A stretch of 64,000 nt of DNA from an uncultured candidatus Brocadiaceae bacterium (GTDB taxonomy: Bacteria > Planctomycetota > UBA1135 > UBA2386): assembly GCA_964538915.1 (NCBI GenBank), contig CAZIFB010000002.1:263424-327423 (forward strand), in the 5' to 3' direction. Every line of letters begins with the position of its first letter. Position 1 is the first letter of the stretch. Below, one piece after another: positions 87-57,843 of this stretch. The translations under genes and the position numbers were made by a program. The notes beneath the pieces are model-generated. The model saw only the letters and a program-made list of their open reading frames with translations. It was not told the origin of the DNA and made no database searches.

Positions 87-971
87 ATGGCCACGCTGCT
101 GCGCCGGTGCATCGCCGCCCTCCGGGCGCCGGGGAACGAACTCGCGTTCGCGGTGCGCAGCGGCCTCGGTTGGCAGCGCGGTCCGGTCGTTCTCGCGAAC
201 GAGGACAAGGGCGGGTTGTTCGCACCGGAACCCGCGGCGCGCGTGCAGTGCCTCGTTGCTCGCTTCGATCTCACGGACCTCGAACGCCGCTCGACGATCG
301 CGGCGTGGGCCGCGAACCTGGCGCTGCTCGAGAGCCTGGAGGCGCTGACCAGGGGTATCGCGATCCCGCACCCCGCGAACGCCGCCGTGCACGCCATCGA
401 CGTGGGAAGCGGTGACTTCCACTACGCGACGGCATTGCAGCGCTGGCTGTCGCTGCACGGCGAACCGCCCGAGCCGCGCAAGGTCGTGCTGCGCGGGTTC
501 GAGATCGACGGCCACGGGATCTACCGCGACGGCCATTCGCGCGCCGACCATGCCCGTTCCCACGCGGCGCTCGCCGCCCGCCCGGGCGACGTCGTCCGCT
601 ACGAAGTGGCCGACGCAGCGTCGGTGCGCCTTCCGGAGCAGGACGTCGCCACACTGCTGTTCCCGTTCCTCACCGCCTACCCGGCCCTGCGGTGGGGCAT
701 GCCGCTGTCGCGCTGGCGGCCGCGTCGCCTCTTGCGTCGTGTCGTTCGTTCGCTGCGGCCGGGCGGCCTCCTGGTGGTCGTCAACCAGACCGCGGCGGAG
801 TTCGAACGGCTGCTGCGCCTCTTCGCCGACGAACCGCTGGAACGGCTCGCAACCGCGTCCTTCGCCACCGATCTCGGGCCCGCCGCGGAACGAACCGCCG
901 ATCGTGTCGGGTCGGCGTGGCGCCGGCTGGAACCCGGAACGACGCCTCCCGGCCGCCCGCGGCGCGGGTAG
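87..971 (+). CDS. class I SAM-dependent methyltransferase-like protein
   Basis: Frame of ORF 66..971, first ATG at 87. Motif-I-like AIDVGSGDF, acidic post-I LRGFEID and an LRPGGLLVVV strand. High GC3. Confidence 0.55.
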   Translation: MATLLRRCIAALRAPGNELAFAVRSGLGWQRGPVVLANEDKGGLFAPEPAARVQCLVARFDLTDLERRSTIAAWAANLALLESLEALTRGIAIPHPANAAVHAIDVGSGDFHYATALQRWLSLHGEPPEPRKVVLRGFEIDGHGIYRDGHSRADHARSHAALAARPGDVVRYEVADAASVRLPEQDVATLLFPFLTAYPALRWGMPLSRWRPRRLLRRVVRSLRPGGLLVVVNQTAAEFERLLRLFADEPLERLATASFATDLGPAAERTADRVGSAWRRLEPGTTPPGRPRRG

Positions 972-1029
972 GATCCCGGCCCTCCGAATCGGCGCCGCAG
1001 GCCCCCGTGGCGCCCCGTTCGACTCGCCA

Positions 1030-3690
1030 ATGCCGTCACCATCCACAGATGCTCGTACGTCGCCTTCCAGCGACGGCCGGTCTCGCCCGAAGCCGAGGAA
1101 GAACCCCCTGCCGATCGTCGTCGGCGCCTTCGCGGTCGGCCTGATCGGCTTCCTCGTCGCAACCAGTGGCGGTGGCTCGGCGCAGGCCGAACTCGCGATC
1201 GTGCAGCGCGCCCGCAAGGACGGTCAGCTCGAGCGCGCCGCGGCGGAGATCGCCAAGTTGCGCCAGGCGTGGGGCGATGCGCAGGACGATCGACTGCAGC
1301 GCCTCGACGCCGAGCAGAAGGAACTCGACACGATCCACGGCGAGATCGATCGCCTCACGGCCCAGGTCCTCGACCCGGCGATCGCGCGCACGCATGCACA
1401 GTGGATCCTGGAGCTGCGTGCGCTCGAGGGCGGCGAGAACCCGGCGGTCGCCATCGCGGCGCGACGGGTGCGCGGTTCGTTGACGGAGACGTTGCTGCGG
1501 CGACCCGTGGTGCGCGTCGCGTCGCCCGACGCGGCGGCGCCGGATGCGAAGAAGGGGGCCGCTCCCGAGGCCGCGCCGGTGGTCGCCACCGCAGCGCCGA
1601 ACGAAGCGGCGCCGGCCCGCATCGATCCGCCGGCGGTCGGAAGGCCGGACGTCGTCGCCGCGGCGCGCAAGGAAGCGACGCGGCTCCTCGATCAGGGACT
1701 CTTCGCGCAGGCGATCGCGATGCTGCAGGAGGGGCTCGCGAACGGCGACGCCGCGGCGGCGGACGGACTCACGGCCCTGCACGAGCACCTGGAGTTCGCT
1801 CGCGGTTCGGCGCGCGCGGCGATGAACGCGCTCCTCGCGGAGGCGAAGCGTGTGTCCGCGACCAAGCCGGACGATGCGGCGCGGCTGCTCGTGGTCGCGC
1901 GCCACCGATTCCCGGCGACGGCCGAATTCGCGCCGCTCGCCGAAGCCCTGCAGAAGGCCGAGCAGGCGGTGCGCGAGGCCAAGGCGGCCGCGGCGGCGGA
2001 AGCCGCGACGCTGCTGAAGCCCGCCGTCGACGACGCGTCGCGCATCGCGACGCTCGCCGGTCTGCGCGGGCAGCTCGATGCGGCGAGGTCCGCCGAGGAA
2101 CGCGGCGACTTCGGCGCGGCGGCGGTCGTCCTGCGCGAAGCCGCGACTGCCGCGCGCGACCGCGACCCGGACTTCGCCGGCCGCCTCGAAGGGCGCGCGG
2201 TCGACGCCGACCTGATCTCCGCGTGGCACCAGGCGATCGCGAACGTGCTGCAGGGCGGGCGCACGCTGAAGTGCACTACGGCCGCCGGCCGCGCGGTCAC
2301 GCTCCAGAGCACGCAGGGTTCGGATCTCGTCGCCACCTCTGCGGACGGCACCGTGCACGTCACGTGGATCGAGGTCTCGCCGCTCGGCATCGCGATGCTC
2401 GTCGACCAGGCCCAGGTGCGCGGCGAAGCGGCCCTCGGTGCCGCGACGCTGCTCTACAAGAACACCGATCGCGAGCGCGCCGAGGTGCTCCTCGCGAAGA
2501 CGCTGCAGGCCGATGCCGCGCTGAAGGGCGCCATCGACGGCGTGCTGTCGCGCGGACGCGGCGAGCCGGTCGATTCGCGCGGTTACACGCTCGGCAAGGA
2601 AGGCTTCGTGTCGGCGCGTTCGGTCGAGCTGCAGAAGGAAGGCCAGAAGCTCGCCGCGCGCCTCGACACCGCACTCGCGGATCGCGACCCGGCCGCACGG
2701 GACAAGGTGCTCGCCGAGGTGGGGGCGTCCGGCCCCGAGGCGGTGGCCGTCCTCACGACCGCGCTGAAGAAGCAGTTCGACCAACGCATCGCGAAGATCG
2801 ACGGGAGCGGCGTGAAGAAGCAGCTCGAGCGCCTCGCCGAACAGCGCCGCCTGCTCGACACGGCGCGACAGGAAGCGAAGGCGTTGATCTACGACGAGGT
2901 GAAGTACTTCTACCCCTACAAGCCACCCGCGGTCTCGGCCGACAAGTTCGCCGAGTACAACCGCGTGCAGGCGGAGGTGAACCGCCTCGTTGCCGCTGTG
3001 CGGGTGATCTGGAAGGACGAGCGCATCAAGGTGCGCGTGCCGGCGTCGATGCGCGGCGACCTCGACCGCATCGACTGGCTCGGCAGGAACCTCGCCAGCC
3101 TCGGAGCACTCGACCAGGCGGCGATGGCGAAGATCGGCTGGGCGCGTGCGCTGCCCGCTGGCGACACGGTTTCGATCCACGACTACTGCGTCGACGCGTC
3201 GGAACGCGCCGAGATCGAAGAGTGGCGCCGGATCGAGGCCTACAACACGATCGCCGGCAAGCAGGTGAGTTCGTCCGCGCGCGAACTGCTCGCGATCACG
3301 AACGAGTACCGAGCGATGTTCCGCCACCGGCCCCTCGCGATCGTGAAGATCGTCTGCGACGCGGCGCAGGGGCACGCCGAGGAGATGACGAAGCTCGGCT
3401 ATTTCTCGCACATGTCGCCGACGCCGGGACGCACGACGCCCTACGACCGCATGCGCCTCGTGGGCTACAACGCCGGCGTCAGCGAGAACATCGCCCTGCA
3501 CGACGGGGCGCTCGGCGCGCACAACGCCTGGTGCACCTCGTCGGGCCACCATCGCAACCTTCTCGACCCGAGCCACACGGAGATGGGGATCGGTTGTGAC
3601 GGCCGCAATTGGGTCGAGAACTTCGGCGCGGGCAGCGTGTATCGTGACGACCCGGCGTGGACCGCGGCCGGGGAGGCCGCGTCGCGCTGA
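1030..3690 (+). CDS. single-pass membrane protein with long Ala-rich helical ectodomain and C-terminal CAP/SCP (YkwD-like) domain
   Basis: Frame of ORF 412..3690, ATG at 1030. Ser/Thr/Pro/Arg-rich N-tail, then TM LPIVVGAFAVGLIGFLVATSGG. C-terminus YFSHMSPTPG...GHHRNLLDPSHTEMGIG is typical of CAP domains. Confidence 0.75.
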   Translation: MPSPSTDARTSPSSDGRSRPKPRKNPLPIVVGAFAVGLIGFLVATSGGGSAQAELAIVQRARKDGQLERAAAEIAKLRQAWGDAQDDRLQRLDAEQKELDTIHGEIDRLTAQVLDPAIARTHAQWILELRALEGGENPAVAIAARRVRGSLTETLLRRPVVRVASPDAAAPDAKKGAAPEAAPVVATAAPNEAAPARIDPPAVGRPDVVAAARKEATRLLDQGLFAQAIAMLQEGLANGDAAAADGLTALHEHLEFARGSARAAMNALLAEAKRVSATKPDDAARLLVVARHRFPATAEFAPLAEALQKAEQAVREAKAAAAAEAATLLKPAVDDASRIATLAGLRGQLDAARSAEERGDFGAAAVVLREAATAARDRDPDFAGRLEGRAVDADLISAWHQAIANVLQGGRTLKCTTAAGRAVTLQSTQGSDLVATSADGTVHVTWIEVSPLGIAMLVDQAQVRGEAALGAATLLYKNTDRERAEVLLAKTLQADAALKGAIDGVLSRGRGEPVDSRGYTLGKEGFVSARSVELQKEGQKLAARLDTALADRDPAARDKVLAEVGASGPEAVAVLTTALKKQFDQRIAKIDGSGVKKQLERLAEQRRLLDTARQEAKALIYDEVKYFYPYKPPAVSADKFAEYNRVQAEVNRLVAAVRVIWKDERIKVRVPASMRGDLDRIDWLGRNLASLGALDQAAMAKIGWARALPAGDTVSIHDYCVDASERAEIEEWRRIEAYNTIAGKQVSSSARELLAITNEYRAMFRHRPLAIVKIVCDAAQGHAEEMTKLGYFSHMSPTPGRTTPYDRMRLVGYNAGVSENIALHDGALGAHNAWCTSSGHHRNLLDPSHTEMGIGCDGRNWVENFGAGSVYRDDPAWTAAGEAASR

Positions 3691-3705
3691 CAGGAGAGCC
3701 GAGAA

Positions 3706-5004
3706 GTGCCGCACCAGATCGAGATCACGAGACCGGGCGGCGCGAAGAACCTGCTGCCGATGGCCGGCGAGACGCTCGTCGTCGGCAGTAGTGCCGGCGC
3801 CGACGTGATGCTGCACGCACCCGGACTCGAGCCGCAGCATCTGCGTTTCGTTCGCACCGACGTGGGTGTCCGCGTCGAGCCGTGCCGCCCCGGCGCGTCG
3901 GTCGTCGTGAACGGCGAGGAGCTGTTCTGCAAGGATCTCGCTCCGAACGACGTCGTCGACCTCGTCGGACTGCGTCTGCGGTGGCTGCCGGAGCCAAAGG
4001 CTCCCGCGAAGGCGGCGCCGGCGCGCCCCGCGCCTGCGGCATCGACTGCGCCGGTTGCGGAGCCGCTGCGCCCCGAGCCCGCCCGAGCTGCCGCACCGCC
4101 ACCGCGACCTGTTCGCAGCGCCGTGCGCGACCGGAATGCCGCCGACGGCGCGGATCGCGACGAACGACCGCGGCGCCGCGCGAAGTCCGTCGGGTGGGGG
4201 CCGTTCCTCGTGGTCTTCGGTCTCGTGCTCGGCGGAGCGGTCGTTGCCGTGAAGCTGCTGTCGAACTCGACGTGGCCGAGTTCACCGGCGGACTACGTCG
4301 ATCTCGCGCGCGAACAGCTGAGGAACAACCAGCGCGAACGCGCTCTCGAGACGCTCGCGTTCGCGATGAAGGATGCGACCGGCGCCGTTCGCGAGGACGC
4401 ACTCGCGCTCTACGCGTCCGTGCAGAAGCTGCACGGTGAGTTCGCCATCGCACCGAAGGTCGACATCGCGCGGCAGGAACTCGGCCTCGTGACGAAGTTC
4501 GCCGAGCGCAATCTCCGCGACAAGGCGACGCGGCCGGCGGCGCGCGAGTTCGTGCGGTCGTGCGACCGCTGGCTCCAGCGCCACCGCGAGGTGTGCACCG
4601 CGTCCGAGGACGGCAAGGTGCTCTTGCGTTCGCTCGAAGAACAGCGAGGCCGCTACGTCGCGATCGCCGCGATGGAAGAACCCGACACGATGGAGGACGT
4701 GCTGTTCGGCGCCCGCGCGAAGATGTCGCTGCAGTGGCGCGAGTACAAGGTGGCGATCCGTGCACTCGACGACTACCTCGCTGCGCACCCCGGCGATGCT
4801 GTCGTCACGGCCGAACGCGAGACGATGCTGCGCGAGGGCGAGGAGTGGCTGCGGGGCCGGCTGCGACTCGTCGATCAGCTGGTCAATCGCGGCGACACGG
4901 GCGGTGCCCAGCGCGATCTCCGCAATCTCGAGGAATGGTCGGTCCTCCCGCAGTGGGAGCCGCTCGTCAAGGCGTACCGCGCGAAGCTGCCTGCGGATCG
5001 GTGA
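3706..5004 (+). CDS. FHA domain-containing single-pass membrane protein
   Basis: GTG start 16 nt after the CAP gene. N-terminal FHA fold pattern (LVVGSSAGADVMLHAPGLEPQHLRF...VVVNGEEL), Pro/Ala-rich linker, TM WGPFLVVFGLVLGGAVVAVKLL and a helical TPR-like C-terminal ectodomain. Confidence 0.8.
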   Translation: MPHQIEITRPGGAKNLLPMAGETLVVGSSAGADVMLHAPGLEPQHLRFVRTDVGVRVEPCRPGASVVVNGEELFCKDLAPNDVVDLVGLRLRWLPEPKAPAKAAPARPAPAASTAPVAEPLRPEPARAAAPPPRPVRSAVRDRNAADGADRDERPRRRAKSVGWGPFLVVFGLVLGGAVVAVKLLSNSTWPSSPADYVDLAREQLRNNQRERALETLAFAMKDATGAVREDALALYASVQKLHGEFAIAPKVDIARQELGLVTKFAERNLRDKATRPAAREFVRSCDRWLQRHREVCTASEDGKVLLRSLEEQRGRYVAIAAMEEPDTMEDVLFGARAKMSLQWREYKVAIRALDDYLAAHPGDAVVTAERETMLREGEEWLRGRLRLVDQLVNRGDTGGAQRDLRNLEEWSVLPQWEPLVKAYRAKLPADR

Positions 5005-5007
5005 CGA

Positions 5008-5565
5008 TCAGTGCGACGCCGCGAACGCGACCGCAGGAGTCGCGAGGGAAGGCGCCGAGTGGCGTTCGTCGCTCAACAGCAGCTGCCAGAACCCGACATC
5101 GTGCCATGCGTCGAACTTGCGCCCGGCGCGGACGACCGTTCCGCAGTGCACGAACCCGAGCGACTCGTGCAGTCGAACGGAAGCGTCGTTCGGCAGCGCG
5201 ATGCCGCCGAGCGCGGCGTGGAAGCCCTGCGCACGCAGCACACGGCACAGGCGCTCGTAGAGCGGGCGGCCGAGACCGCGACCACAGTGGTGCGGCGCCA
5301 GGTAGATGCCGGTCTCGGTGATCCACCGGTACGCCGAGCGTGTGCGCCACGCGCCGGACTTCGCGTAGCCGACCACTTCGCCCTCGCGCTCGGCGGCGAG
5401 CCAAGGGTAGGTGTCCTGATGCTCGCGCCACGTCGAGCGCAGTTCGTCCGCGGTGACGTCGTCGTAGCCGAAATGGATCGCCGTCGTGCGGATGTAGTGG
5501 TTGGTGATCGTCGCGAACGTCGCGAAGTCCTCCGCGTGCGCGAGCCGGATCGTTGCTCCGGTCAT
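5008..5565 (-). CDS. GNAT family N-acetyltransferase (phosphinothricin/methionine-sulfoximine acetyltransferase-like)
   Basis: C-terminal 185 aa of ORF 5008..6306: MTGATIRLAHAEDFATFATITNHYIRTTAIHF...CGRGLGRPLYERL. The ATG overlaps the meaB stop (ATGA at 5562-5565). Confidence 0.85.
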   Translation of the reverse strand: MTGATIRLAHAEDFATFATITNHYIRTTAIHFGYDDVTADELRSTWREHQDTYPWLAAEREGEVVGYAKSGAWRTRSAYRWITETGIYLAPHHCGRGLGRPLYERLCRVLRAQGFHAALGGIALPNDASVRLHESLGFVHCGTVVRAGRKFDAWHDVGFWQLLLSDERHSAPSLATPAVAFAASH

Positions 5566-6530
5566 CGCCGCCCCTTCACCAGGTCTCGGGCCGCAGTCGT
5601 CGCCAGGACCTCGCCGCGTGCGACGCGCTGGCGCGCCGCAGCCATTGCCGCGGCCGTCGAGGGATCGGCGAGGAACGCCGTCAGCAGCCGTTCGCGAACC
5701 GCGGTGTCCAGCCACTCGTCGGCCTGCCGCGCTCGACGTGCCGCGAACCTCCCGTCGGCGCGCCGTGCGGCGGCAGCACGCTCGATCGTGCGCCACAGCT
5801 CGTCGAGGCCGGCGCCGGTGAGCGACGAGCCGACGACGACCGCAGGCGGTTCCGCGCCGTCGGGATGCAGCACGTGCATGGCGATGCGGCACTGCTGCGC
5901 GGCGCGCTCCGCGGCGGCCGCGAGGTCGCCGTCCGCCTTGTGCACGAGCACCGCGTCGGCGAGTTCCATCACGCCGCGCTTGATGCCCTGGAGTTCGTCG
6001 CCGGCCGCCGGCGAGAGCAGGAGCAGGAAGAAGTCGACCATGCCGTGCACCGCGACTTCGCTCTGACCCGTGCCGATCGTCTCGACGAGAACGACGTCGA
6101 ACCCGCCCGCCTCGCACAGCAGCATCGCTTCGCGGGTGCGCGCGGCCACGCCGCCGAGGGTCTCGCCGCCGGGCGACGGCCGGATGAACGCGTTCGCCTG
6201 CCGGCTCAGCTCGGTCATCCGCGTCTTGTCGCCGAGGATGCTGCCGCCGGTGACCGCCGAACTCGGATCGACGGCGAGGACCGCGACCCGGTGGCCGGCG
6301 CCGCACAGCTGCATGCCGAGTGCTTCGATCAGCGTGCTCTTCCCCACGCCGGGCGCTCCGGTGATGCCGACGCGCAGCGACGCACCGGCGCGCGGAAGCA
6401 GCGCCTGCAGCAGTTCGTCCGCAGCGCCGGCATCGGTGTCGCGCCGGCTCTCGACGAGGGTGATGCCGCGCGCGAGGGCGCCGCGGTCACCGAGCTGGAT
6501 CGCTGCAGCGAGGTCGTGGATCGACGTCAC
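5562..6530 (-). CDS. meaB: methylmalonyl-CoA mutase-associated GTPase MeaB/ArgK
   Basis: P-loop GITGAPGVGKST, DPSS..TGGSILGDKTRM, VETIGTGQSE and HKADG motifs across the full 322 aa. Confidence 0.9.
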   Translation of the reverse strand: MTSIHDLAAAIQLGDRGALARGITLVESRRDTDAGAADELLQALLPRAGASLRVGITGAPGVGKSTLIEALGMQLCGAGHRVAVLAVDPSSAVTGGSILGDKTRMTELSRQANAFIRPSPGGETLGGVAARTREAMLLCEAGGFDVVLVETIGTGQSEVAVHGMVDFFLLLLSPAAGDELQGIKRGVMELADAVLVHKADGDLAAAAERAAQQCRIAMHVLHPDGAEPPAVVVGSSLTGAGLDELWRTIERAAAARRADGRFAARRARQADEWLDTAVRERLLTAFLADPSTAAAMAAARQRVARGEVLATTAARDLVKGRR

Positions 6531-6630
6531 GCGGACACGCTACGCGGCGGCCGTCCGTCTTGCCACGCGGGTGGTATCGGCCGACACGGGCGTGCGCACA
6601 TCGAGGTCGCGACGATACGCTGCCGCCCAC

Positions 6631-8372: not shown

Positions 8373-10553
8373 TCATTCGCCGATCGTGAACTTCAGCGCG
8401 CGCGTGAACGCGAAGTCCGGCAGCAGCGGGCAGCCGCCCGGGGTCAGCAGGACCCACTGCGCCCAGACGTCGACACCGATCAGGGTCGTGTCGCACGGCA
8501 GCGGGAGCGGGTTCGGCGTGTTGCCCGGTTGGAGGATGTCGAGTGCCGGCACGATCGTGCAGGGACCGCACGCCGCCGAGATGCTCGACAGACCGAGGAC
8601 CAGCGCGATCGGCAGGGCCGTCGGGTTGACCAGTTCGAAGGCGAACGTGCTGTCGCCGATCACGGGGTCGCCGTTCCAGCTCGCGTAGTTCTGGAGCTGG
8701 CTCGTGCCGCAGCTGCCGCCGAGGTCGACCACCGCACCGGTGCCGTGCGCCTCGAGCTGATGGCCGCGGACCGTGTCGTCCGACCAGACCACGATCGCGC
8801 GATTGCTCGCGGTGTCGCCGGCGGTGTAGCGCGCCGCGATCGCGGGCACGTTCTCCGCGACGGTCGCGTTGTTCAGGATCCATTCGGTGCCACAGACGTC
8901 GCCGGTCTCCGGCGAGATGCACGTCGCGAAGACGCGCGGCAGCGACAGGCTGTTGACGCGATCCCGCCACGCGAGCAGGTAACGGTCCTGCGCGAACGCG
9001 ACGGCGGGCGCCTCGTGGGCGTGGGTGCCCGGCAAGATCTTGGCGGTGCCGAGCGACAACGAGCCAGAGCCGCAGCTGCCGCTCCAGCTCAGGAGACGCG
9101 TCTGCACGTCCTGCGCGGTGCCGGACGACCGCTGCCACGCGACAAGGAACTCCGAGCCGTCGGGCGACGCGCTCATGGGCAATGACAACGTGGCGCTCGT
9201 CGACGAGTACAACGTCGTCGCGGGAGAACATGGTGCGCCGTTCGAGCCGACGATCGCGCCGCGGATGCGGCTCGTCGATCCGGAAGTGTCTGCCCAGGTG
9301 ACGAGCCACCGCAGAGCACTGCCGCCCTGGGCCGTGATCCCGAGATGCTCCACGGGAGTCGTCAACGATGCGACCTGACTCGCGGAGCCGCTCAGCACGG
9401 GGTCCCCGGTGGCCGGCACGTGCACGATCCTGGTCCAGATTCCCGGGGGCGGCGAGGAGGTGTGACTCTCGTACGCGACGACCACGGTCTGTGCGCTGCT
9501 CGTCGATCGGGAGTCGCCGCCGAGCACCGCGGTGAGGTCCGTGCCCGTGGCGACGACCAGCGGACCGGAGACGCCCGTCGACGGATCGACGGCTCTCACC
9601 AAGACCTGGCTGAACGGGAAGGACAGTGCCTGCAGGTACGAAACGAGGAAGCGGCTGGTGCCGTTCACGTTGGCGACCGAGGGTCGGCCAGTGGTGAACG
9701 ATCCGAGGCCGGCGATCTGGACCGTGCTGCCGGACAGGGCTCCGTTGGTGGTGAGGAACTGGCCGCGGATCTCGACGGCCGGCCCGCCCGCGAACCGCGC
9801 GACCCACACCACGAAGTACCGATTCGTCGTGTCGTCGAAGGCGATCGCCGGCGTTACGTCGTCGTACCCGCCGACGGAACTCACGTCGAAGACCGCACCG
9901 ACGAGCGGGTCGAGCACCATCGGGTAGGCGGCGCCGTCGACGAAGGCGGCGGGCAGGACCCATTCGACGTGATCACCGACGACGCGGATCGAGCCGCGTG
10001 CCGTGGCGCCGTTCGCATCGACGCCGGTCACCGCGCCGAACGTCACGCCGCCCAGGCCTTCCGCTTCGTAGCGGACGCCGCCGTCGTCCGCCGCGACCAT
10101 GGGCATGTCCGTCGTCACGAGGCCGCGCACGACGAGGTCGCCGCTGCCCCCGGGCCGCGTCGCGAAGACGAAGCTCTGTTCGATGCCGTCGCGACGGACG
10201 TCGTAGACCTCGGTGAGGTCGCCGCGGTGCTGGTAGCGCACGGTGTTGTCGAGCACGATCGGCCGCAGGTCCGCACCGCCGCGCGTGAACACTTGCGTCG
10301 ATCCGCGCCGGACTTCGTCGAGCGTGAACCGGACCGGGTGCATCGTCGCGGCCCGCTTGCCGAGCGCGGGCACGAACTCCATGCCGCGCCCGTCGAATCG
10401 CGCCGAGTAGTCGGGGCCCATCGCGTGGGCGCCGTCGGCGGTCGCGGTGACACCGAACGACTCGCGAAGGACGTTCGCCGCGTTGGCGTCCTGCGCGACG
10501 GCGGACGCGCCGGTGAGGAGGGCGAGAGAGACGCTGGGAAGGTATGCGCGCAT
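8373..10553 (-). CDS. secreted repeat (beta-propeller-like) protein with shared C-terminal module
   Basis: ATG at 10553 gives signal peptide MRAYLPSVSLALLTGASAVAQD. About 7 repeats of the type P.VA....(F/L)LV.W......(I/V)RG. Cys-containing tail GGSCGTS...CGPC...GGCPLL...KFTIGE. Confidence 0.7.
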   Translation of the reverse strand: MRAYLPSVSLALLTGASAVAQDANAANVLRESFGVTATADGAHAMGPDYSARFDGRGMEFVPALGKRAATMHPVRFTLDEVRRGSTQVFTRGGADLRPIVLDNTVRYQHRGDLTEVYDVRRDGIEQSFVFATRPGGSGDLVVRGLVTTDMPMVAADDGGVRYEAEGLGGVTFGAVTGVDANGATARGSIRVVGDHVEWVLPAAFVDGAAYPMVLDPLVGAVFDVSSVGGYDDVTPAIAFDDTTNRYFVVWVARFAGGPAVEIRGQFLTTNGALSGSTVQIAGLGSFTTGRPSVANVNGTSRFLVSYLQALSFPFSQVLVRAVDPSTGVSGPLVVATGTDLTAVLGGDSRSTSSAQTVVVAYESHTSSPPPGIWTRIVHVPATGDPVLSGSASQVASLTTPVEHLGITAQGGSALRWLVTWADTSGSTSRIRGAIVGSNGAPCSPATTLYSSTSATLSLPMSASPDGSEFLVAWQRSSGTAQDVQTRLLSWSGSCGSGSLSLGTAKILPGTHAHEAPAVAFAQDRYLLAWRDRVNSLSLPRVFATCISPETGDVCGTEWILNNATVAENVPAIAARYTAGDTASNRAIVVWSDDTVRGHQLEAHGTGAVVDLGGSCGTSQLQNYASWNGDPVIGDSTFAFELVNPTALPIALVLGLSSISAACGPCTIVPALDILQPGNTPNPLPLPCDTTLIGVDVWAQWVLLTPGGCPLLPDFAFTRALKFTIGE

Positions 10554-10619
10554 GGCTGGTCTCGAGGAGCAGCGAGACTGCACGCCCGCGCGTTCGCGGG
10601 ACCGGCCTCCTTCCAGCGA

Positions 10620-12095
10620 CTAAAGGCGCCCCAGCACGAACTCGAGGCCGTTGCTCGAACTCGCCGCGCCGCCGACCTCGAAGGTGACGACCTGCAGACG
10701 GATGAGGTTGCCGGCCCACGACGGCGTGTTTGGCAGGGCGAAGGCGACGTCCGCGACCCCGCCCGACGCGACGTGTCCGGTCAGCACGTCCGGGAACGAC
10801 AGCAGCAGGCAGCCGGGCAGCGCCTGGCCGAGAACCAGCGACAGCGGCACGTTCGTCGCCGAGAGGCCCCAGACGCCGAGCGAGATCGACACGGTCGGCA
10901 ACCCGGTGCACACGGCTGCCATCGCCGTGCCGAGCCATGGCTGCGCGGTCGCGGTCAGGACGTTCGGGCCGCCGCTGCCGGCGCAGCCGGTGCCGTACGC
11001 CGTGTTCGCGGGCGGGCAGCCGGCCGTGATCGCGAGCACCGAGCGCGGGGAACTGCCGAGCAGTGCCGGTGCCTGGCACAAGAGGATCCGGCCGTCGGGA
11101 AGCACTTCGCAGGCGCCGACGAGGCCGGCGAGGCCTAGCGGCGTCAGCGCGGTCGAGCTGCCGATGTCGCTCCACGCGAGCGTGAGCGGATCGAGGCGCG
11201 CGACGCCGCGGACCGACGTCGCTGCGCCGGCGGTCACGGTGCTGAACGCACCGACGACGATCGCGCTGCCGTCGGGGTGGCGCGCCATGTCGTACGCCGT
11301 CGTCAGGTTGCCGCCGCTCAGGGTGCCGGCCACCGACCACGCGGCGCCGTTCCAACGTTGCACGGTCTGGAAGCCGCCGGCGATCAGTTCGCCGTTGCCG
11401 AGTTCGGCGAAAGCGTTCGGCACCATCGATGCGAGGTTGCCGACGGAAGACCACGCGCTGCCGTTCCATCGCGCGACGAAGCCCGTGACGCCTGCCACGG
11501 AGCCGCCGACGACGAGGTCGCCGTTGCCGAGCAGACGCATTCCGCCGGGCGAGGTCACGCCCGGGCCGAGAGCAGACCAGGCTGCGCCGTTCCAGTGCGC
11601 GATGTTGCTGGCGGGCGCGCCGCCAGCGCTCGAGAAGTTGCCGAGCACGACGAGGTCGCCGTTCGGCATCTCGACGGCGTCCTTCACGAGGAAACCGCCG
11701 ATGCCGCTGCCGAGGGCGGACCACGACGCGCCGTTCCACACGGCGATGTTGTTCACGGGCACGCCGCCCGCGTTGGTGAACGTGCCGCCGACGACGAGCA
11801 GTCCCGACGACGTGCGCAGCAGGGCGTTGACGGACGCGACGGTGCCGCTGACGCCGCCCGCGAGTGCGGACCACGACGTGCCGTTCCATCGCGCGATGCG
11901 GGCCGCGGCGACGCCGCCGATCGTGGTGAACGTCCCGCCGGCGAAGAGCCCGCCGCTGCCGTCGGGGATCGCGACCGTCACCGTTTCGGTGCTGCTCGTG
12001 AGCGCGGACCATGCCGGCGGATCGACGCACTGCGCGGTCAGCACGGATGCGGCGGCCGCGAGCGAGGCGGAGAGAAGGATGGCGCGGGCGAGCAT
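10620..12095 (-). CDS. secreted WNGxxWSxxG-repeat (propeller-like) protein with shared C-terminal module
   Basis: ATG at 12095 (MLARAILLSASLAAAASVLTAQ signal), AAGGGG-like RBS upstream. Five clear repeats (ARWNGTSWSALAGG, AVWNGASWSALGSG, AHWNGAAWSALGPG, ARWNGSAWSSVGNL, QRWNGAAWSVAGTL) spaced about 48 aa. Tail YGTGCAGSGG...LPGCLLL...EFVLGRL. Confidence 0.75.
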   Translation of the reverse strand: MLARAILLSASLAAAASVLTAQCVDPPAWSALTSSTETVTVAIPDGSGGLFAGGTFTTIGGVAAARIARWNGTSWSALAGGVSGTVASVNALLRTSSGLLVVGGTFTNAGGVPVNNIAVWNGASWSALGSGIGGFLVKDAVEMPNGDLVVLGNFSSAGGAPASNIAHWNGAAWSALGPGVTSPGGMRLLGNGDLVVGGSVAGVTGFVARWNGSAWSSVGNLASMVPNAFAELGNGELIAGGFQTVQRWNGAAWSVAGTLSGGNLTTAYDMARHPDGSAIVVGAFSTVTAGAATSVRGVARLDPLTLAWSDIGSSTALTPLGLAGLVGACEVLPDGRILLCQAPALLGSSPRSVLAITAGCPPANTAYGTGCAGSGGPNVLTATAQPWLGTAMAAVCTGLPTVSISLGVWGLSATNVPLSLVLGQALPGCLLLSFPDVLTGHVASGGVADVAFALPNTPSWAGNLIRLQVVTFEVGGAASSSNGLEFVLGRL

Positions 12096-12250
12096 GGGAA
12101 CCCCTTTCGTGCGGAATCGCGGCGGAGCACAGTAGAGGCGCACGCCGCGTCGCGACAGGTTTCGTTGCGCCGCTCGCCTGTTCCGCCTCGTGTTGCGCGG
12201 CGGGCCGTATCGGGACGAGCGCCGTTGCCGGCGCGTCGGACCCGGGGCGA

Positions 12251-14404
<2,154 letters not shown>

Positions 14405-17324: not shown

Positions 17325-18941
17325 TCAGGGGATCGTGACGGTGAGCGCGTCCGTCGCGGAGAGTCCTTCCACCGCGGTCGCGTCGAGGAAGAACGTCTGC
17401 AGCCACACGCGGAAGGCCGGCGGCAGCGTCGCCATCCAGTCGAGGTTCTGCACGATGTCGGGGCCGCTGCCGAGGACCGCGAGCAGGATGTCGGGCGATG
17501 GTTCGACGGTGCCGCCGAACGCGGGGATCGAGAGCGCGGACGCGCCGATCGCGACGAGGCCGATCGAGTTCGGCGCGTAGTTGCCGATGGTGAGCTCGAT
17601 GGGATCGACGAGGTTCATCGTGCCGGAACCGTGCTGCAGCGGTTTGCCGAGCGCACCCGTGATCCCGCCGCCGAGCTGGCACCAGTTCGGCGCCGTCGTC
17701 GCGTGGAATTGTGCGACCGTGTCGACGGTCTGGTTGAGCGTGAGCACGTTGTCCGCCGCGCCCGCCACGCCCATCGTGTAGCCGAGCCACGTGACGTTCG
17801 GGCTCGACCAGCGGTTGATTCGCACGCCGGGCGGGTAGGCCATGATGGTGCGGTAGGCGTCGTCCGCGGTGCGGAACCCGTAGGAATAAGGGAAGAGCGC
17901 CGAGCCCGCGTTCGCGGCGTCGTGGTGGCAGCCCATGTTGTGGCCGCACTCGTGCGTGAACGAGCGGTTCGAGATGCAGGTGCGAACGGTCACGCCGAAC
18001 GCCGACGATGCGAACCCCGTCGAGAGGTTGGTCATCAGGTACGCGATGCCGCAGTAGGCGGGCGACGCCGGGTCGGTCACGAGGTGCACCAGGTCCGCGC
18101 CGTACGTGTCGCGCAGCGCGTGCACTTCGTCCATGAAGCCGTCCTGGTCGGAGCGCAGGTTCGCGAGGTCGGTGCCCGTGCCGAGTTCGGCGTAGTTCGT
18201 CTCCGCCATGTGCACGAGCCGGAACTCGGCGGGCACACCGCTCTGCATGTGACCGTCGTTGGCCTGGGCGATCGCACCGACGATCGCCGCTTCGATCGCG
18301 GCGACACCGCCGGCGTTCTGTCGTGCGAGCGGCGTGTAGAAGACGATGACGTCGATCGTCGTCAGCGAGCAGTTCGTGTTCGGCGACCCCGACGACGAGA
18401 GTTGCGCCGGCGGCGCCACGACGGCTGTGGTGTGGTCCGTGCCGCAGCCCATGTGCGCGGGCAGCCGCCGCTGGTCGATCCGCTGCAGCACGTGTACGTC
18501 GCCGACGCCGGTGTAGGCGATCACGAACTGGCGCGCCTCGACGTCGATCGATGCCCATGTCTCACCACCCGGCGCGAGTACGACGTGCACCTCGCTCTGG
18601 CGACCGACGACGTGACCGTCGAACACGCGATAGCCGAGGGCCCACTTCCGGCTCGTGAACTCGATGTCCACGCGCTCGTCGAAGAGGTCGGCGGCGAACG
18701 TGCCGAGTGGCGGCGCGCCGCCGAGCGGCATCGCGCCGAGCGCCGTCGTGTCGACGCGCACGAACCGCGACTGCGCGACCATCGGACTGCGCGCTTCCTC
18801 GGCGGCGCTCCAGGTCTGCGCCGCGGCCGGCACCGGATCGACGAGTGTGAAGAGTGGTGCCTGCGCGCCTGCCGTGGTGAAGGCCGAGAGCGAGAACGCG
18901 AGCCAGCTCACTGCTCGCGGGATGTTGGACCATCCGGACAT
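17325..18941 (-). CDS. secreted reprolysin-like (M12B-type) zinc metalloprotease with shared C-terminal module
   Basis: Signal peptide WLAFSLSAFTTAGAQA. Metzincin motif HECGHNMGCHHD followed by a Met-turn-like RTIMAY. C-terminal tail of about 110 aa ending LSATDALTVTIP. Confidence 0.85.
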   Translation of the reverse strand: MSGWSNIPRAVSWLAFSLSAFTTAGAQAPLFTLVDPVPAAAQTWSAAEEARSPMVAQSRFVRVDTTALGAMPLGGAPPLGTFAADLFDERVDIEFTSRKWALGYRVFDGHVVGRQSEVHVVLAPGGETWASIDVEARQFVIAYTGVGDVHVLQRIDQRRLPAHMGCGTDHTTAVVAPPAQLSSSGSPNTNCSLTTIDVIVFYTPLARQNAGGVAAIEAAIVGAIAQANDGHMQSGVPAEFRLVHMAETNYAELGTGTDLANLRSDQDGFMDEVHALRDTYGADLVHLVTDPASPAYCGIAYLMTNLSTGFASSAFGVTVRTCISNRSFTHECGHNMGCHHDAANAGSALFPYSYGFRTADDAYRTIMAYPPGVRINRWSSPNVTWLGYTMGVAGAADNVLTLNQTVDTVAQFHATTAPNWCQLGGGITGALGKPLQHGSGTMNLVDPIELTIGNYAPNSIGLVAIGASALSIPAFGGTVEPSPDILLAVLGSGPDIVQNLDWMATLPPAFRVWLQTFFLDATAVEGLSATDALTVTIP

Positions 18942-19208: not shown

Positions 19209-20372
19209 ATGCGGAATCTCGTCTTCGCGATCGGACTGTCGATCGGTGTCTCAGCCCTCGGGCAGAGCCAGATCGCGCGCTTCGACTTTCAGAACCAGCT
19301 GAGCAGCGCCCAGCCGGCATTCGCCTACGTCGGCGACGTGGTCCTCAGCAAGTCGCATCAGTTCAGCGGACCCTCGTCGGATCGCGCGCTGTCGTTGCCT
19401 CTCTCGTGGAACACCGGTGGCAGCCTGAGCTTCACGGTGTGGCCCGGCTACGGGCAGACGATGGACTTCGGCCATCTCCGGTGGTTCGTGCTGCCGAACT
19501 CGCCCGGAGTCCAGGACTGTGTGCAGGGCGTCAGCATCTTCGCCAACGGTCTGCAGGTGGCGTTCCTGAACTCGATCCCGCAGAACACGGTGATCGACGT
19601 CGATCTGACCTCGTTCGCGTCGCTGCAGAACACGGTCTATCCGGTCACGTTCGACCTCGTCTTCGTCGGCAACCCGACCGGCACGTCGGCACACGAGATC
19701 GGCTTTCTCGAGGTGACCGGTTCCGCTTGTGACTTCACGATCCAGTCCGTGACCCCGACCTCGCTGCCGACGGCGACGACCGACTACTTCCAGATCCTCG
19801 GCGACGGCTTCCGCACGGCACAAGGCGTGTCGCGCGTGGTGCAGGTCAAGTTCGGCAACACGGTGCTGGTGCCGTATTCGCAGAACGCGTTCGTGGTGGG
19901 TTCCTACGAAGTCTTCTCCCAGTGGAAGGTGCGCGTTCGCCCGCCGCAGTGCATCCCGCCGGGGCAATACACGATCGAGATCCAGACCGACTGTGACGTC
20001 AAGTCCGTTCAGGTGTCGCTCGTCGATCCGACGGCGCCGGTGATCGCCACGGCGTCCACCTACCCGGCGGGAACGACCCAGTGCTTCTCGGTGCACGCCG
20101 GCGGAACCGGGCCGCAGATCATCGTTCTCTTCGCGAGCCCCCTCGATCAGCCGTCGGTCGTGCCTGGCCTGCTCGCGCTCGATCTCGCGGACAACTTCTC
20201 GCTCTACGGGATGGTGTTCGCGATCGGCGACTGCGTGAACTTCTGCCTGAACGTGCCGCTCGTGAAGATCGACACGTGCCACTACTTCCAGGCAGCGATC
20301 TGGCACAACAGCAACCTCTCGCTGACGAGCCCGCTGCCGACGACCCGGCGCGTCACGACCTGCTGGTACTGA
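19209..20372 (+). CDS. secreted protein with IPT/TIG-like domain and shared C-terminal module
   Basis: ATG at 19209 with signal MRNLVFAIGLSIGVSALGQS. IPT-like segment FTIQSVTPTSLPTATTDYFQILGDGF...YTIEIQT. GC3 is host-like although total GC is lower. Confidence 0.7.
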   Translation: MRNLVFAIGLSIGVSALGQSQIARFDFQNQLSSAQPAFAYVGDVVLSKSHQFSGPSSDRALSLPLSWNTGGSLSFTVWPGYGQTMDFGHLRWFVLPNSPGVQDCVQGVSIFANGLQVAFLNSIPQNTVIDVDLTSFASLQNTVYPVTFDLVFVGNPTGTSAHEIGFLEVTGSACDFTIQSVTPTSLPTATTDYFQILGDGFRTAQGVSRVVQVKFGNTVLVPYSQNAFVVGSYEVFSQWKVRVRPPQCIPPGQYTIEIQTDCDVKSVQVSLVDPTAPVIATASTYPAGTTQCFSVHAGGTGPQIIVLFASPLDQPSVVPGLLALDLADNFSLYGMVFAIGDCVNFCLNVPLVKIDTCHYFQAAIWHNSNLSLTSPLPTTRRVTTCWY

Positions 20373-23389: not shown

Positions 23390-25954
23390 TCAGCGCACTC
23401 GACGAACCGGCCGCAGGCCGACACCCGAGTCGCGCGAACTCGCCGGCAGTCCCGTGCGCGCGGTCGATCGCGCGGCGAGAGGGCTGTCGACGCACGAGCC
23501 GCCGCGGACGGCGCGCGGTGCGTTCGGCGGAGTTCCGGCGCGCTGCCGCAGGCCGTCGCCCGCTCGCAGCGTGCCCTGACCGTACGCGAGCTTCTCGTCC
23601 GCGCACCATTCGGCGACGTTGCCGTGCACGTCGTAGAGGCCGAACGGATTCGGCGCGAGTGCGCCCGTTCGCTGCGGTCGGCCGCCGAACCATCCCTGCG
23701 CCGCGACGCCGAGCGGGTCCCGCCCGGTGCACCACGGTGTGTCGGTGCCCGCGCGACACGCGAATTCCCACTGCGCTTCCGTCGGCAGATGCAGGCCGGC
23801 GCGGGCCAGCGTCGCGACGGCTTCCGTCCACGCGATCCCGACCGCCGGCAACCGGGGGTCGCCGTCGACGGTTTCGCCGCCGAGGCGCGCCCACTGTCTG
23901 CGCGTGAGTTCGGTGCTCGCGATCAGGAACTCGTCGAGCGAGACCAGTTCGCCGCCGAGCTCGTCGTCGTCCGCATCGTCGTCGTTGCCGGCCATCCCGG
24001 GGTCGCCCCGGCGTGTGCCGAGTCGCAGGATCCCGGCCGGGACCAGCACGAACACGATGCCCGTGTCGGCGTCCGCGCGCAGCTTGCCGGTCGCGGGGTC
24101 GCGCGAGGGCCAGGGGTGACCCGGTGTGTGCGTGTAGAGGTCGAGGAACTCGCACAGCATCGTCGTGCGGTCGCAGCCGAGCGGAACGAGGCCCGGCAGG
24201 GGGCGCATGCGCATTCCGCGATACGCGGTGCTGGCGCCCAGGCCATCGCTCGTGGTGATCGCTGCCAGTGTCTGCTTCCACTCCGCTTCGGTCGTCTTGG
24301 CGGCGGGACGCGCGACGTCGCGTAGGAATCGGAGATCGGCGGCGATGCGGGCGTGGGGGCCGCCCGGAGCGGCGAATGCTCGCAGGGCCTCGCGCAGGCG
24401 GACCAGCGCGTTCTCGAGGTGCTCGTCGACGGGGTCCGTGAACCGCCCGCCGGGACTCCCGGCCTTCTTCGCGGCGAGGCCGCGCAGACGTTCGTCCACC
24501 TTGTCGACCTCGGCGACGAGCGGTGCTGCCTGTCCGTCGAGCCAGCTGGTGAAGGCGCTCTCGTTCTCGGGCCATGGCGGCGGGAGTGCTGCGGCGGCGC
24601 TCATCGCGGTGGCCAGGCGTTCTTCGTTGGCGAGCAGCCGGAATCCGGCGTCCGCCTTCGCGGTGACCTCGTCCTTCTGGCGTTGCACCTCGTCGAGCGA
24701 CGCGTGGGCGATGTGCAGGCCCCACGCGAGGCCGCCGATCGCCGTGAGCAATGCGACGGCGGCGAGCGCGACGGCGGCGGACTGGGCCCGGTTGCGGCGG
24801 ACGAACTTGCGCAGCCGGTACCACGTCGTCGGTGTCGCCACCTGGACCGGTTCGTCGGCGAGATGGCGGCGTAGGTCCGCCGCGAACTCACCGACCGTGC
24901 CGTAGCGCTCGTCGCGCGACTTCGCGAGCGCCTTGCCGGCGATGCCGTCGAGATCGCCGCGGAGCGCGAAGCGCCGTTCGCGCGGCGCGGCCGCGCTCGG
25001 CGGTGCGTGCCGGTGCTCCGCGATCACCGTGGCCATTCCTGCGAGACCGCGGGCGCGCAGCACGACGCCGGGGATCGGCAGCTGGTCCGTGAGCAGTTCG
25101 TAGAGCTGCACACCGAGGGCGTAGACGTCCGTGCGCGTGTCGATGTCCTCGACGCGGCCCGCCGCCTGCTCAGGGCTCATGAACTCCGGCGTGCCCATGA
25201 GCGTGCCTTGGAACGTCATCGCGCCGCCCTTCAGCAGCGGGTCGTTCAGCGACTTCGCGATGCCGAAGTCGATGATCTTCGGTTGCGGGTTCCCGTCGGG
25301 GTCCGCGACGAGCACGTTGTTGGAGCTGAGATCGCGGTGCAGCACCGCCTTCTGGTGCGCGTGCTGCATCGCGTCGAGCACCATGAGGAACAGGCGGAGC
25401 CGTTCCCGTACGGGCGCCCTCCGTTGTCGGCACCACGCGACGAGGGTCGGGCCCGACACGAGTTCCATCACGAAGTACGGACGGCCCTTCGGCGTGGCTC
25501 CGGCGTCGAGCAGGCGCGCGATGCCCGAGTGATCCATCCGGTTCAGCGCCTCGCGCTCGGCGGTGAAGCGGCCGAGGATCTCGCGCGAGTCCATGCCGGG
25601 ATTCAGCACCTTCACCGCGACCGGTCGCCGGATCGGCTCCTGTTGCTCGGCGCGATACACCGTGCCGAAGCCGCCGCGCCCCAGGATTTCCTGCAGCACG
25701 TAGACACCGAGACGCATCGGCAGGGTGTCGGCGTCCTGCAGCGCCGGCTCGCGAGGGGGCTCGCCGTGCGTCGTGGCCGGAATCGTGATCCCGCACGACC
25801 CGAGCCAGCCGCGGATCGTTCGTGCGTGACGCGACTCCCGGCGCAGGAGTTCGCGCAGCGCGTCGTCGCGGCGGCCTTCGTCGCCGTCGAGAATGCGCAA
25901 CACTTCGTCTTCGACGTGCTGCGGCAGGGTGTCGTCGTGCGGGGCCCCGGTCAT
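23390..25954 (-). CDS. transmembrane Ser/Thr protein kinase with C-terminal FGE-sulfatase (SUMF1-like) domain
   Basis: Kinase motifs GRGGFGTVY, VAVKVL, HRDLSSNNVLV, DFGIAK and GTPEFMSPEQ. TM AAVALAAVALLTAIGGLAWGL. C-terminus LPTEAQWEFACRAG...YDVHGNVAEWC...RGGS. Confidence 0.9.
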   Translation of the reverse strand: MTGAPHDDTLPQHVEDEVLRILDGDEGRRDDALRELLRRESRHARTIRGWLGSCGITIPATTHGEPPREPALQDADTLPMRLGVYVLQEILGRGGFGTVYRAEQQEPIRRPVAVKVLNPGMDSREILGRFTAEREALNRMDHSGIARLLDAGATPKGRPYFVMELVSGPTLVAWCRQRRAPVRERLRLFLMVLDAMQHAHQKAVLHRDLSSNNVLVADPDGNPQPKIIDFGIAKSLNDPLLKGGAMTFQGTLMGTPEFMSPEQAAGRVEDIDTRTDVYALGVQLYELLTDQLPIPGVVLRARGLAGMATVIAEHRHAPPSAAAPRERRFALRGDLDGIAGKALAKSRDERYGTVGEFAADLRRHLADEPVQVATPTTWYRLRKFVRRNRAQSAAVALAAVALLTAIGGLAWGLHIAHASLDEVQRQKDEVTAKADAGFRLLANEERLATAMSAAAALPPPWPENESAFTSWLDGQAAPLVAEVDKVDERLRGLAAKKAGSPGGRFTDPVDEHLENALVRLREALRAFAAPGGPHARIAADLRFLRDVARPAAKTTEAEWKQTLAAITTSDGLGASTAYRGMRMRPLPGLVPLGCDRTTMLCEFLDLYTHTPGHPWPSRDPATGKLRADADTGIVFVLVPAGILRLGTRRGDPGMAGNDDDADDDELGGELVSLDEFLIASTELTRRQWARLGGETVDGDPRLPAVGIAWTEAVATLARAGLHLPTEAQWEFACRAGTDTPWCTGRDPLGVAAQGWFGGRPQRTGALAPNPFGLYDVHGNVAEWCADEKLAYGQGTLRAGDGLRQRAGTPPNAPRAVRGGSCVDSPLAARSTARTGLPASSRDSGVGLRPVRRVR

Positions 25955-26034
25955 CGGCCCGGGATCATCGCGTCCCGCGCCGTTCGCGCCACATGCCGCT
26001 CGACGCCGCGCAGGTTCGCGTGTGCACTGGCGCC

Positions 26035-26694
26035 ATGGAGTCCGCGAAGTTCGTCCCGTACCCCGATCGCCACGTCCCCGCCGGGTCACCGGAGGCGGCG
26101 GCCGCCGCGTTCCACGACGTGATGCGCCGCCGGCGAAGCGTGCGCATGTTCAGCGACCGGCAGGTGTCGCTCGAGACCGTGCAGTGGCTCGTGCGCTGCG
26201 CCCACAGCGCGCCGAGCGGTGCCAACAAGCAGCCGTGGCGGTTCGTCTGCGTTCGCGATGCGGCGACCAAAGCACGCATTCGCGAAGGCGCCGAGGCGGA
26301 GGAACGCGAGTTCTACTCCCGTCGCGCGAACGAGGAGTGGCTGCGCGATCTGGCTCCGCTGGGCACCGACGAGAACAAGGCGTTCCTCACGATCGCGCCG
26401 TGGCTCGTCGTCGTCTTCCAGACGCTGCGTGGCGACGACGGGAGTCAGGTCTACTACCCGAAGGAGAGTGTCGGGCTCGCCTGCGGTCTGTTTCTCGCCG
26501 CGGCGCAGTGGGCGGGTCTCGCGACGCTGACGCACACCCCGAGTCCGATGGCGTTCCTCGGGCAGATCCTGGGGCGGCCGGCGCACGAACGGCCGTTCCT
26601 GCTGATCCCGGTCGGGTATCCGGCCGAGCCGTGCCTCGTGCCAGCGAAGGCGCTCGAACGCCGCCCTCTCGAAGAGGTGATGGTGGTGGTCTGA
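26035..26694 (+). CDS. nitroreductase-superfamily flavoprotein, iodotyrosine deiodinase (IYD)-like
   Basis: RRSVRMF, APSGANKQPWRFVCV, EEREFYSRR...W..DL, and TLTHTPSP...LLIPVGYP. ATG at 26035 in the frame of ORF 25822..26694. Confidence 0.85.
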   Translation: MESAKFVPYPDRHVPAGSPEAAAAAFHDVMRRRRSVRMFSDRQVSLETVQWLVRCAHSAPSGANKQPWRFVCVRDAATKARIREGAEAEEREFYSRRANEEWLRDLAPLGTDENKAFLTIAPWLVVVFQTLRGDDGSQVYYPKESVGLACGLFLAAAQWAGLATLTHTPSPMAFLGQILGRPAHERPFLLIPVGYPAEPCLVPAKALERRPLEEVMVVV

Positions 26695-57767: not shown

Positions 57768-57843
57768 TGGTGGGCCGTGCTGGATTCGAACCAGCGACTT
57801 CGACCTTGTGACGATCGCACTCTACCAACTGAGTTAACGGCCC
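57768..57843 (-). tRNA. tRNA-Val (anticodon CAC), CCA encoded
   Basis: The reverse complement GGGCCGTTAACTCAGTTGGTAGAGTGCGATCGTCACAAGGTCGAAGTCGCTGGTTCGAATCCAGCACGGCCCACCA folds as a cloverleaf. It has a 7-bp acceptor stem, D arm ACTC/GAGT, anticodon stem CGATC/GGTCG with loop GTCACAA, and T arm GCTGG-TTCGAAT-CCAGC. Confidence 0.93.

Follow-up and report, generated by a model that had tools for sequence, protein, structure and literature searches.

The stretch of DNA analysed here in full, referred to as the window, comprises 64,000 nucleotides from an uncultured candidatus Brocadiaceae bacterium of the Planctomycetota (assembly GCA_964538915.1, contig CAZIFB010000002.1, positions 263,424 to 327,423). 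Its G+C content is ~70% and it is syntenic with the metagenome-assembled genome (MAG) GCA_016794565.1, the proteins being 94-96% identical. Between positions 8373 and 12095, where the first-pass annotation of this DNA had placed them, the window carries two co-directional genes of exported proteins, A and B, which lie on the minus strand with a gap of 66 bp between them and start with signal-peptide-like N-termini. Both proteins end in a domain that also closes a third protein of the window, the metzincin C. Mobile and extracytoplasmic, this module has undergone an expansion in a lineage of uncultured Planctomycetota of high G+C content. In its core idea, that exported proteins whose bodies are unrelated share a mobile module, the first-pass annotation is correct.

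The bodies preceding the domain differ among the three proteins. In hmmscan comparisons with Pfam-A and NCBIfam, the body of B resembles two beta-propeller models, Rax2 and DUF5122, and that of C is a Reprolysin/Mep72 metallopeptidase at amino acids (aa) 193-419, whereas no model matched the body of A. Three further proteins, D, E and F, had been proposed to carry the same tail; their N-termini resemble those of A and B. All the signal peptides of the window proteins were called by eye from the translations. The coordinates of the genes and of their terminal segments are given in Table 1.

A domain family shared by A, B and C

Compared in pairs, the tails offer little to build upon. BLAST among the six tails returned nothing under an expectation value (E) of 0.01, and Smith-Waterman alignments of the last 130 aa, evaluated against shuffled sequences, gave z=1.5 for A and B, that is, no likeness above chance. 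The sole elevated pair was B-E (z=3.7), every other pair remaining below 1.6. Because neither pairwise method reached significance, the motif matching behind the first-pass annotation does not constitute statistical evidence, and the question was therefore settled with profiles.

A hidden Markov model (HMM) seeded with 150 database tails was iterated on the open reading frames (ORFs) of the window and of 34 related loci (535 kb, 4,359 ORFs in total), and the E-values of these iterations refer to this small database. A was recruited in the third iteration, its E-value prior to inclusion being 5e-4, and its ortholog P0169 was recruited independently with E=1.2e-5; C followed at iteration 5, with E=4.4e-4 before its own inclusion. 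Against the family HMM built before it joined, A obtained 24.8 bits, compared with 8.5 bits for the best of 1,000 shuffles, and C obtained 23.8 bits, compared with 13.1 for the best of as many shuffles. The alignment of C spans HMM positions 6-136 and its residues 418-537, i.e., up to the second-to-last residue of the protein.

Profile-profile comparisons with hhalign point in the same direction. A aligns with the B-like tails only at E=2.5e-4, end to end over 116 columns; together with its ortholog it reaches a probability of 79% (E=1.6e-5), which rises to 96% (E=2e-9) when the wider family is used, the comparisons of A covering 116-120 columns. A thus matches significantly, and over its whole length, a profile built without it, and the tail that A and B had been said to share, which their pairwise alignment does not reveal, is recovered by the profiles. 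C also matches a profile built without it, yet more weakly than A: alone, it reaches a probability of 60% in hhalign (E=8.4e-5), and no orthologs of C were found from which to build a sub-profile. As judged from these profiles, which show the relationship at the level of sequence, the tails of A, B and C make up one domain family of ~125-135 aa. In A, the tail bears two Cys pairs, GGSCG...CGPC and LPCD...GGCP.

Table 1. Genes A to F of the window, with their N-terminal and C-terminal segments
Feature	Position	Strand	Extent	Remarks
Gene A	8373-10553	(-)	726 aa	
Signal-peptide-like N-terminus of A	10491-10553	(-)		MRAYLPSVSLALLTGASAVAQ; by eye from the translation; ends in AQ
C-terminal beta-sandwich domain of A	8376-8753	(-)	aa 601-726 of 726	Family HMM envelope reaches the final residue
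Gene B	10620-12095	(-)	491 aa	
Signal-peptide-like N-terminus of B	12030-12095	(-)		MLARAILLSASLAAAASVLTAQ, followed by Cys; by eye; ends in AQ
C-terminal beta-sandwich domain of B	10623-11027	(-)	aa 357-491 of 491	Founder of the search; HMM of 150 database tails gives 142 bits
Gene C, metzincin	17325-18941	(-)	538 aa	ORF
Signal-peptide-like N-terminus of C	18861-18941	(-)		By eye from the translation
C-terminal domain of metzincin C	17328-17705	(-)	aa 413-538 of 538	Divergent, Cys-poor family member
Gene D, weak IPT/TIG match	19209-20372	(+)		ORF
Tail of D	20070-20369	(+)		Membership unsupported; no signal in HMM, hhalign or population tests
Gene E, orphan	26778-28238	(+)		ORF
Tail of E	27936-28235	(+)		Membership unsupported; no HMM signal; hhalign probability 1%
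Gene F, CocE/NonD / PepX_C hydrolase	58972-60990	(-)		ORF
Tail of F	58975-59305	(-)		Possible remote member, undemonstrated; 6.9 bits; hhalign probability 2-3%

Fold and lack of a named family

An AlphaFold2 model of the B tail, computed with 42 homologous tails, is of high confidence (predicted local distance difference test, pLDDT, 95; predicted template modelling score, pTM, 0.88) and shows a compact all-beta domain of 10 strands and one short helix. Compared with the PDB by Foldseek, the model retrieves generic immunoglobulin (Ig)-like sandwiches only, the best of them with E=1.3e-3, and query-normalised template modelling (TM) scores range from 0.33 to 0.48. The C-terminal domain (CTD) of type IX secretion system (T9SS) cargo, the comparison that the first-pass annotation had suggested, does not appear among the top 50 matches. 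The structures sharing the all-beta architecture include the C-terminal domain of GH158 (6PAL/9P26), the GM2 activator (2AG2) and NIS1 (8XGL), together with the arrestin-like N-domain of VDUP-1 and macroglobulin MG domains; with root-mean-square deviations of 6-12 A, identities of 5-19% and the TM scores given above, these amount to a resemblance in fold class and not to membership. The model thus shows the fold class of the domain, a predicted compact all-beta sandwich.

No Pfam or NCBIfam model matched the tails of the six proteins at E<=1, nor did any match 21 diverse tails of the family at the same threshold, and the family profiles have no relative among PDB sequences. Pfam (2025), NCBIfam 20.0, the sequences of the PDB and such literature as could be searched yielded no description of the domain, in agreement with the first-pass annotation, which did not recognise the tail as a named family. 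It is best classed as a new, unnamed family among the accessory beta-sandwiches that secreted proteins are known to carry. Dockerins were dismissed by eye only, no Ca-binding D-rich repeats being seen.

Carriers and position within proteins

The domain is found behind signal peptides on bodies unrelated to one another, as had been claimed. Apart from the metzincin of the window, carriers in the related loci include Kelch, RCC1, FG-GAP and DUF5122/Rax2 propellers, the lectin-like Laminin_G_3, NIDO and a HEMGH zincin, and many carrier bodies have no Pfam match. The best 150 B-like matches in the database scan described below are mostly propeller proteins of ~490 or ~830 aa.

The position of the domain is strongly biased. 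Among these 150 best B-like representatives, in which it occurs as a single copy, the domain ends on the last residue of the protein in 148, and 50 of the 55 distinct members in the loci have it within 10 residues of the end. The claim that the tail always stands at the extreme C-terminus therefore describes nearly all members and fails for three relatives, in which 195-362 further residues follow. These three, out of 26 members that are not B-like, have the domain at the N-terminus or internally: in L004:5180-6859 and L016:13509-15464 (the prefix L denotes a related locus), it adjoins the signal peptide directly, with a further 244 and 362 residues, respectively, behind it, and in L018:16549-18891 it lies between the HEMGH zincin and 195 further residues. 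The G+C content at third and second codon positions is unchanged across the junctions of all three, and therefore the same frame keeps coding after the domain. These cases tend to argue against an obligate C-terminal export signal.

Size, spread and sequence features of the family

A HMMER scan of 1.84 billion cluster representatives (50% identity), with a profile made of the B tail and one close relative, recovered 1,711 representatives at E<=1e-3, 838 of them at E<=1e-10. Given the narrowness of this profile, the family comprises at least 1,711 such representatives. A word-indexed homolog search, whose index is too insensitive for this purpose, found one match with the B tail and 23 short fragments with an alignment of 21 tails. 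Exact look-ups of B and of the methylmalonyl-CoA mutase of the window matched no record.

The genomic distribution was obtained by scanning one genome per GTDB species with 8 tails and the motif [VI]LPQGLPGC, with lineages taken from the titles of NCBI records. Twenty loci were confirmed, 19 of which are strong: 17 from MAGs titled Planctomycetota, one from a MAG titled Brocadiaceae and another from an unclassified one. The remaining locus, in Saprospiraceae, matches weakly, and metagenomes contributed 6 more loci. As loci were fetched through B-like genes bearing this motif, the sample is biased towards such genes. The G+C content of the carrier lineage is compatible with the Saltatorellus clade (67-70.5%), which is a hint as to its identity and no more.

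Regarding sequence features, in most members a Cys pair (GxGC...PGC) is conserved and P..G....Q occurs as a late motif. Of the 150 best B-like representatives, 113 end in F, Y or W, a feature suggestive, by analogy, of the C-termini of outer-membrane proteins. In the full-length B-like representatives (n=111), a hydrophobic stretch lies within the first 45 residues in 102 and an [AG]QC motif within the first 60 residues in 74, and the representatives P0002-P0151 have a further Cys at the junction between body and tail (tCPA). This arrangement suggests that a disulfide may tie the N-terminus to the tail in B-like proteins. As for relatives of A, GCA_016794425.1 contains two tandem A-like genes, L022:3429-4145 and 4376-6607, each ending in the family domain; one of them encodes the 238-aa P0169, with a tail 57% identical to that of A, and the other a protein of 743 aa.

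The tails of D, E and F

Of the six carriers originally claimed, A, B and C stand, whereas D and E give no signal and F is marginal. None of the three was found at E<10 across the 10 iterations of the HMM search, and their relationship to the family was further examined with tail profiles made from full-length orthologs (4 for D, 18 for E and 11 for F). The family-HMM scores of D and E are equalled by 239 and 318 of 1,000 shuffles, respectively, that is, no signal, and their ortholog-based tail profiles reach probabilities of <=1.4% in hhalign against the family. In the case of E, the probability is 1% (E=0.056) and the 30 aligned columns correspond to an in-register GG..P..G....Q motif. F obtains 6.9 bits against the final family HMM, a score reached by 8 of 1,000 shuffles (p ~0.008), and aligns with the family over 55 in-register columns at E=0.013-0.02, with a probability of 2-3%. 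As a point of reference, N-terminal windows of the D, E and F proteins score only slightly below their tails against the family, and sliding windows of 100-200 aa along the three ortholog alignments, compared with the family by hhalign in local, global and low-mact modes, yielded nothing significant.

Inspected by eye, E and F show a late GG..lP..G....Q/T motif in the right order, below significance. In the reverse comparison, family tails score slightly above their reversed or shuffled copies on the E and F tail HMMs (p ~0.01-0.035, from non-independent samples) and rank among the best weak matches of the F-tail HMM, and show no excess over reversed copies on that of D (p=0.73). The AlphaFold2 model of the E tail is poor (pLDDT 58.8), and its Foldseek matches, generic Ig V-set domains with TM ~0.33, carry little weight because of this low confidence. 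These comparisons do not demonstrate that D and E end in this module, and the tail of F may be a remote relative of the family.

A more inclusive explanation would have all six tails, D, E and F included, as very divergent members of one superfamily, beyond the sensitivity of profiles. It draws on the fact that E and F each have their best local alignment, in register, at one and the same late motif, on the slight advantage of family tails over randomised copies, and on the behaviour of an HMM covering half of the domain, which gives more weak matches at the extreme C-termini of long ORFs and suggests that divergent members go unrecognised; the E model, moreover, is beta-rich and its last strands are similarly patterned. 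However, D and E reach significance in no test, D lacks even the excess over reversed sequences, and the E model is the low-confidence one with generic matches just described, all of which makes this explanation somewhat unlikely.

Two observations bear on these tails and on divergent members. The F-tail motif G.lDa.G.....l.lP.a.a..l.GlrF..tG.v recurs at the C-terminus of L016:157-1443 (-) (E=2.3e-4 with the F-tail HMM), a distinct protein with a weak match to a right-handed beta-helix; the F tail may hence represent another mobile module of C-termini, separate from the main family, or else a branch of that family that has diverged. Additionally, an HMM of the last third of the domain has weak matches (E=5e-4 to 0.4), nearly all within 50 residues of the end of long ORFs, among them L012:14936-16723, L012:10481-13105, L027:13477-16188, L028:1555-2688 and L017:15849-16991. 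These hint at further divergent members missed by the full-length profile.

Comparison with known C-terminal elements

Among the characterised systems, the T9SS CTD is similar in general plan: it, too, is a folded Ig-like beta-sandwich, forms the very end of numerous Sec-exported proteins whose bodies are unrelated, and is present in many copies per genome. The T9SS CTD consists of seven strands in ~72 aa, truncation of its two end residues blocks secretion, and PorZ, one of the cargo proteins, combines a propeller with a beta-sandwich CTD (PMC5445135). Neither the six proteins nor the 21 tails match PF18962, TIGR04183 or TIGR04131 at E<=1, and identity with the T9SS CTD was rejected. The fold differs as well: the model of the B tail has 10 strands in ~135 aa, and none of its PDB matches exceeds a TM of 0.48. 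Besides, the hosts are Planctomycetota, whereas the T9SS was described as confined to Bacteroidetes in a 2017 review (PMC5445135), and the domain bears Cys pairs and is sometimes N-terminal or internal.

A second group is formed by the tripartite sorting signals, namely PEP-CTERM/exosortase, LPXTG/sortase, GlyGly-CTERM and MYXO-CTERM/myxosortase, which resemble the present domain as recurrent C-terminal elements. Such signals recur at the C-termini of dozens of exported proteins of a lineage (10.1101/2023.06.07.544157; PMC11980579). They combine a short motif with a transmembrane helix and a cluster of basic residues, whereas the domain described here is globular, all-beta and ~135 aa long, with neither a hydrophobic helix nor a basic tail. 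The C-termini confirm the absence of a PEP/transmembrane/basic signal noted in the first-pass annotation, since ...ALKFTIGE, ...LEFVLGRL and ...ALTVTIP lie in a predicted beta strand, on which grounds a signal of the PEP-CTERM type was rejected; the sorting-signal models of NCBIfam matched none of the six proteins or 21 tails.

Accessory sandwiches constitute a third group. PPC (PF04151) and similar domains are small and form the C-terminal end of secreted hydrolases, metallopeptidases among them. The resemblance lies in a small beta-sandwich appended C-terminally to secreted proteins; PPC itself was discarded, as there is no Pfam match and the carriers here are mostly non-enzymatic propellers.

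Possible function of the domain

The distribution of the domain may be understood if it serves Sec-exported proteins with unrelated bodies, usually as their last domain, as a common handle for binding or anchoring. Such a handle would tether exported propellers and enzymes to one shared partner, which could be, for example, a receptor protein, the surface layer or some other component of the cell envelope, and would differ from a cleavable signal that must be C-terminal for a translocon to read it. The conserved Cys pairs and the Sec-type N-termini place the domain outside the cytoplasm, and a handle is favoured because N-terminal and internal copies would be tolerable for a binding module and should not be for a signal read at the C-terminus. 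That this unnamed extracytoplasmic Ig-like module is a common handle to one shared partner has, in our judgement, about an even chance of being right.

Several points weigh against it. The handle is a function that we infer from architecture alone. The bias towards the end of the protein (148/150 and 50/55) and the frequency of a terminal F, Y or W (113/150) exceed what a generic binding module needs, and a terminal bias of this strength fits a terminal recognition signal. The three non-terminal cases are divergent members, with first-pass E-values of 2.4e-4 to 7.6e-7 in a small database. Lastly, the search for machinery spanned the window and related loci, leaving room for co-occurring machinery in the rest of the genomes.

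The same features would be expected of a true sorting domain, a folded C-terminal signal that directs proteins to an undescribed outer-membrane translocon or attachment enzyme and is perhaps removed afterwards, along the lines of the export or attachment route proposed in the first-pass annotation. The exact C-terminal end, the single copy, the terminal aromatic residue, the diverse Sec-type cargo and the several genes per 100 kb all agree with it, and the T9SS offers a precedent in PorZ and in the effect of truncating the CTD end. However, the domain does not match Por_Secre_tail by sequence or HMM, lacks a CTD among its structural matches, differs from it in strand number and length, occurs in a phylum outside the stated range of the T9SS, and is N-terminal or internal in three relatives. 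Neither secretion or sortase-like genes nor T9SS components were present among the inspected genes of the window and of ~500 kb of related loci, although cargo and machinery need not be linked. The proposed route found no direct backing in these data. A sorting role of the domain, which draws real support from the extreme terminal bias and the conserved terminal aromatic residue, is unproven, and we consider it unlikely. A more specific version, in which the domain is the recognition handle of a lineage-specific, undescribed pathway for outer-membrane export or covalent surface attachment, as an independent analogue of the T9SS CTD whose N-terminal and internal copies would be non-signalling derivatives, appears less probable still.

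Alternatively, the domain could act within its own protein, in folding, stability or capping, in the manner of PPC and with no common external partner. Its carriers are mostly beta-propellers of one lineage-specific family, the best 150 sharing the same layout; the Cys after the signal peptide and that at the start of the tail in B-like proteins would fit a disulfide by which the body closes onto the tail; and a metzincin and a zincin are among the carriers, a trait shared with PPC domains. Its fusion to at least seven unrelated types of body is hard to square with a body-specific cap, though, and the domain can precede the body and does not match PPC, so that an intramolecular role is rather improbable.

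Planctomycetota have unusual cell envelopes, and how their large exported proteomes are displayed or released is poorly understood. The domain marks a whole class of exported propellers and enzymes and offers a concrete starting point for asking where these go and what holds them. The family deserves an entry of its own, by which hundreds of 'hypothetical proteins' would gain a domain annotation, and should it prove to be a true targeting signal, a new secretion or attachment route would be defined.

Other features of the window

ARAGORN reports a 'tRNA-???' with a two-base anticodon at 786-874 (-), inside a coding region, which is probably a false positive; the only tRNA of the window according to Rfam is tRNA-Val, at 57768-57843. 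The gene at 349-3690 (+) encodes a protein of ~1,100 aa in which nothing but a CAP (cysteine-rich secretory protein) domain, at the C-terminus, can be recognised, and it is immediately followed downstream by the gene of an FHA-domain protein (3691-5004).

Gene E is adjoined by a gene at 23390-26149 (-) for a Ser/Thr protein kinase with a C-terminal FGE-sulfatase (formylglycine-generating-enzyme-like) domain, a fusion that is also encoded at L031:5010-7583, L032:7239-9779, L033:5552-8149 and L034:916-3480. The gene order kinase, nitroreductase, E and MatE is kept in several related MAGs. In the orphan E family, of ~485 aa and without a Pfam domain, conservation extends down to 38% identity and the Cys, PD.Y and STP motifs are invariant. 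The window has a single copy of E; paralog pairs occur in L031, where they are adjacent (8410-9864 and 10001-11449), and in L033, where one short gene lies between them (10001-11461 and 11995-13452).

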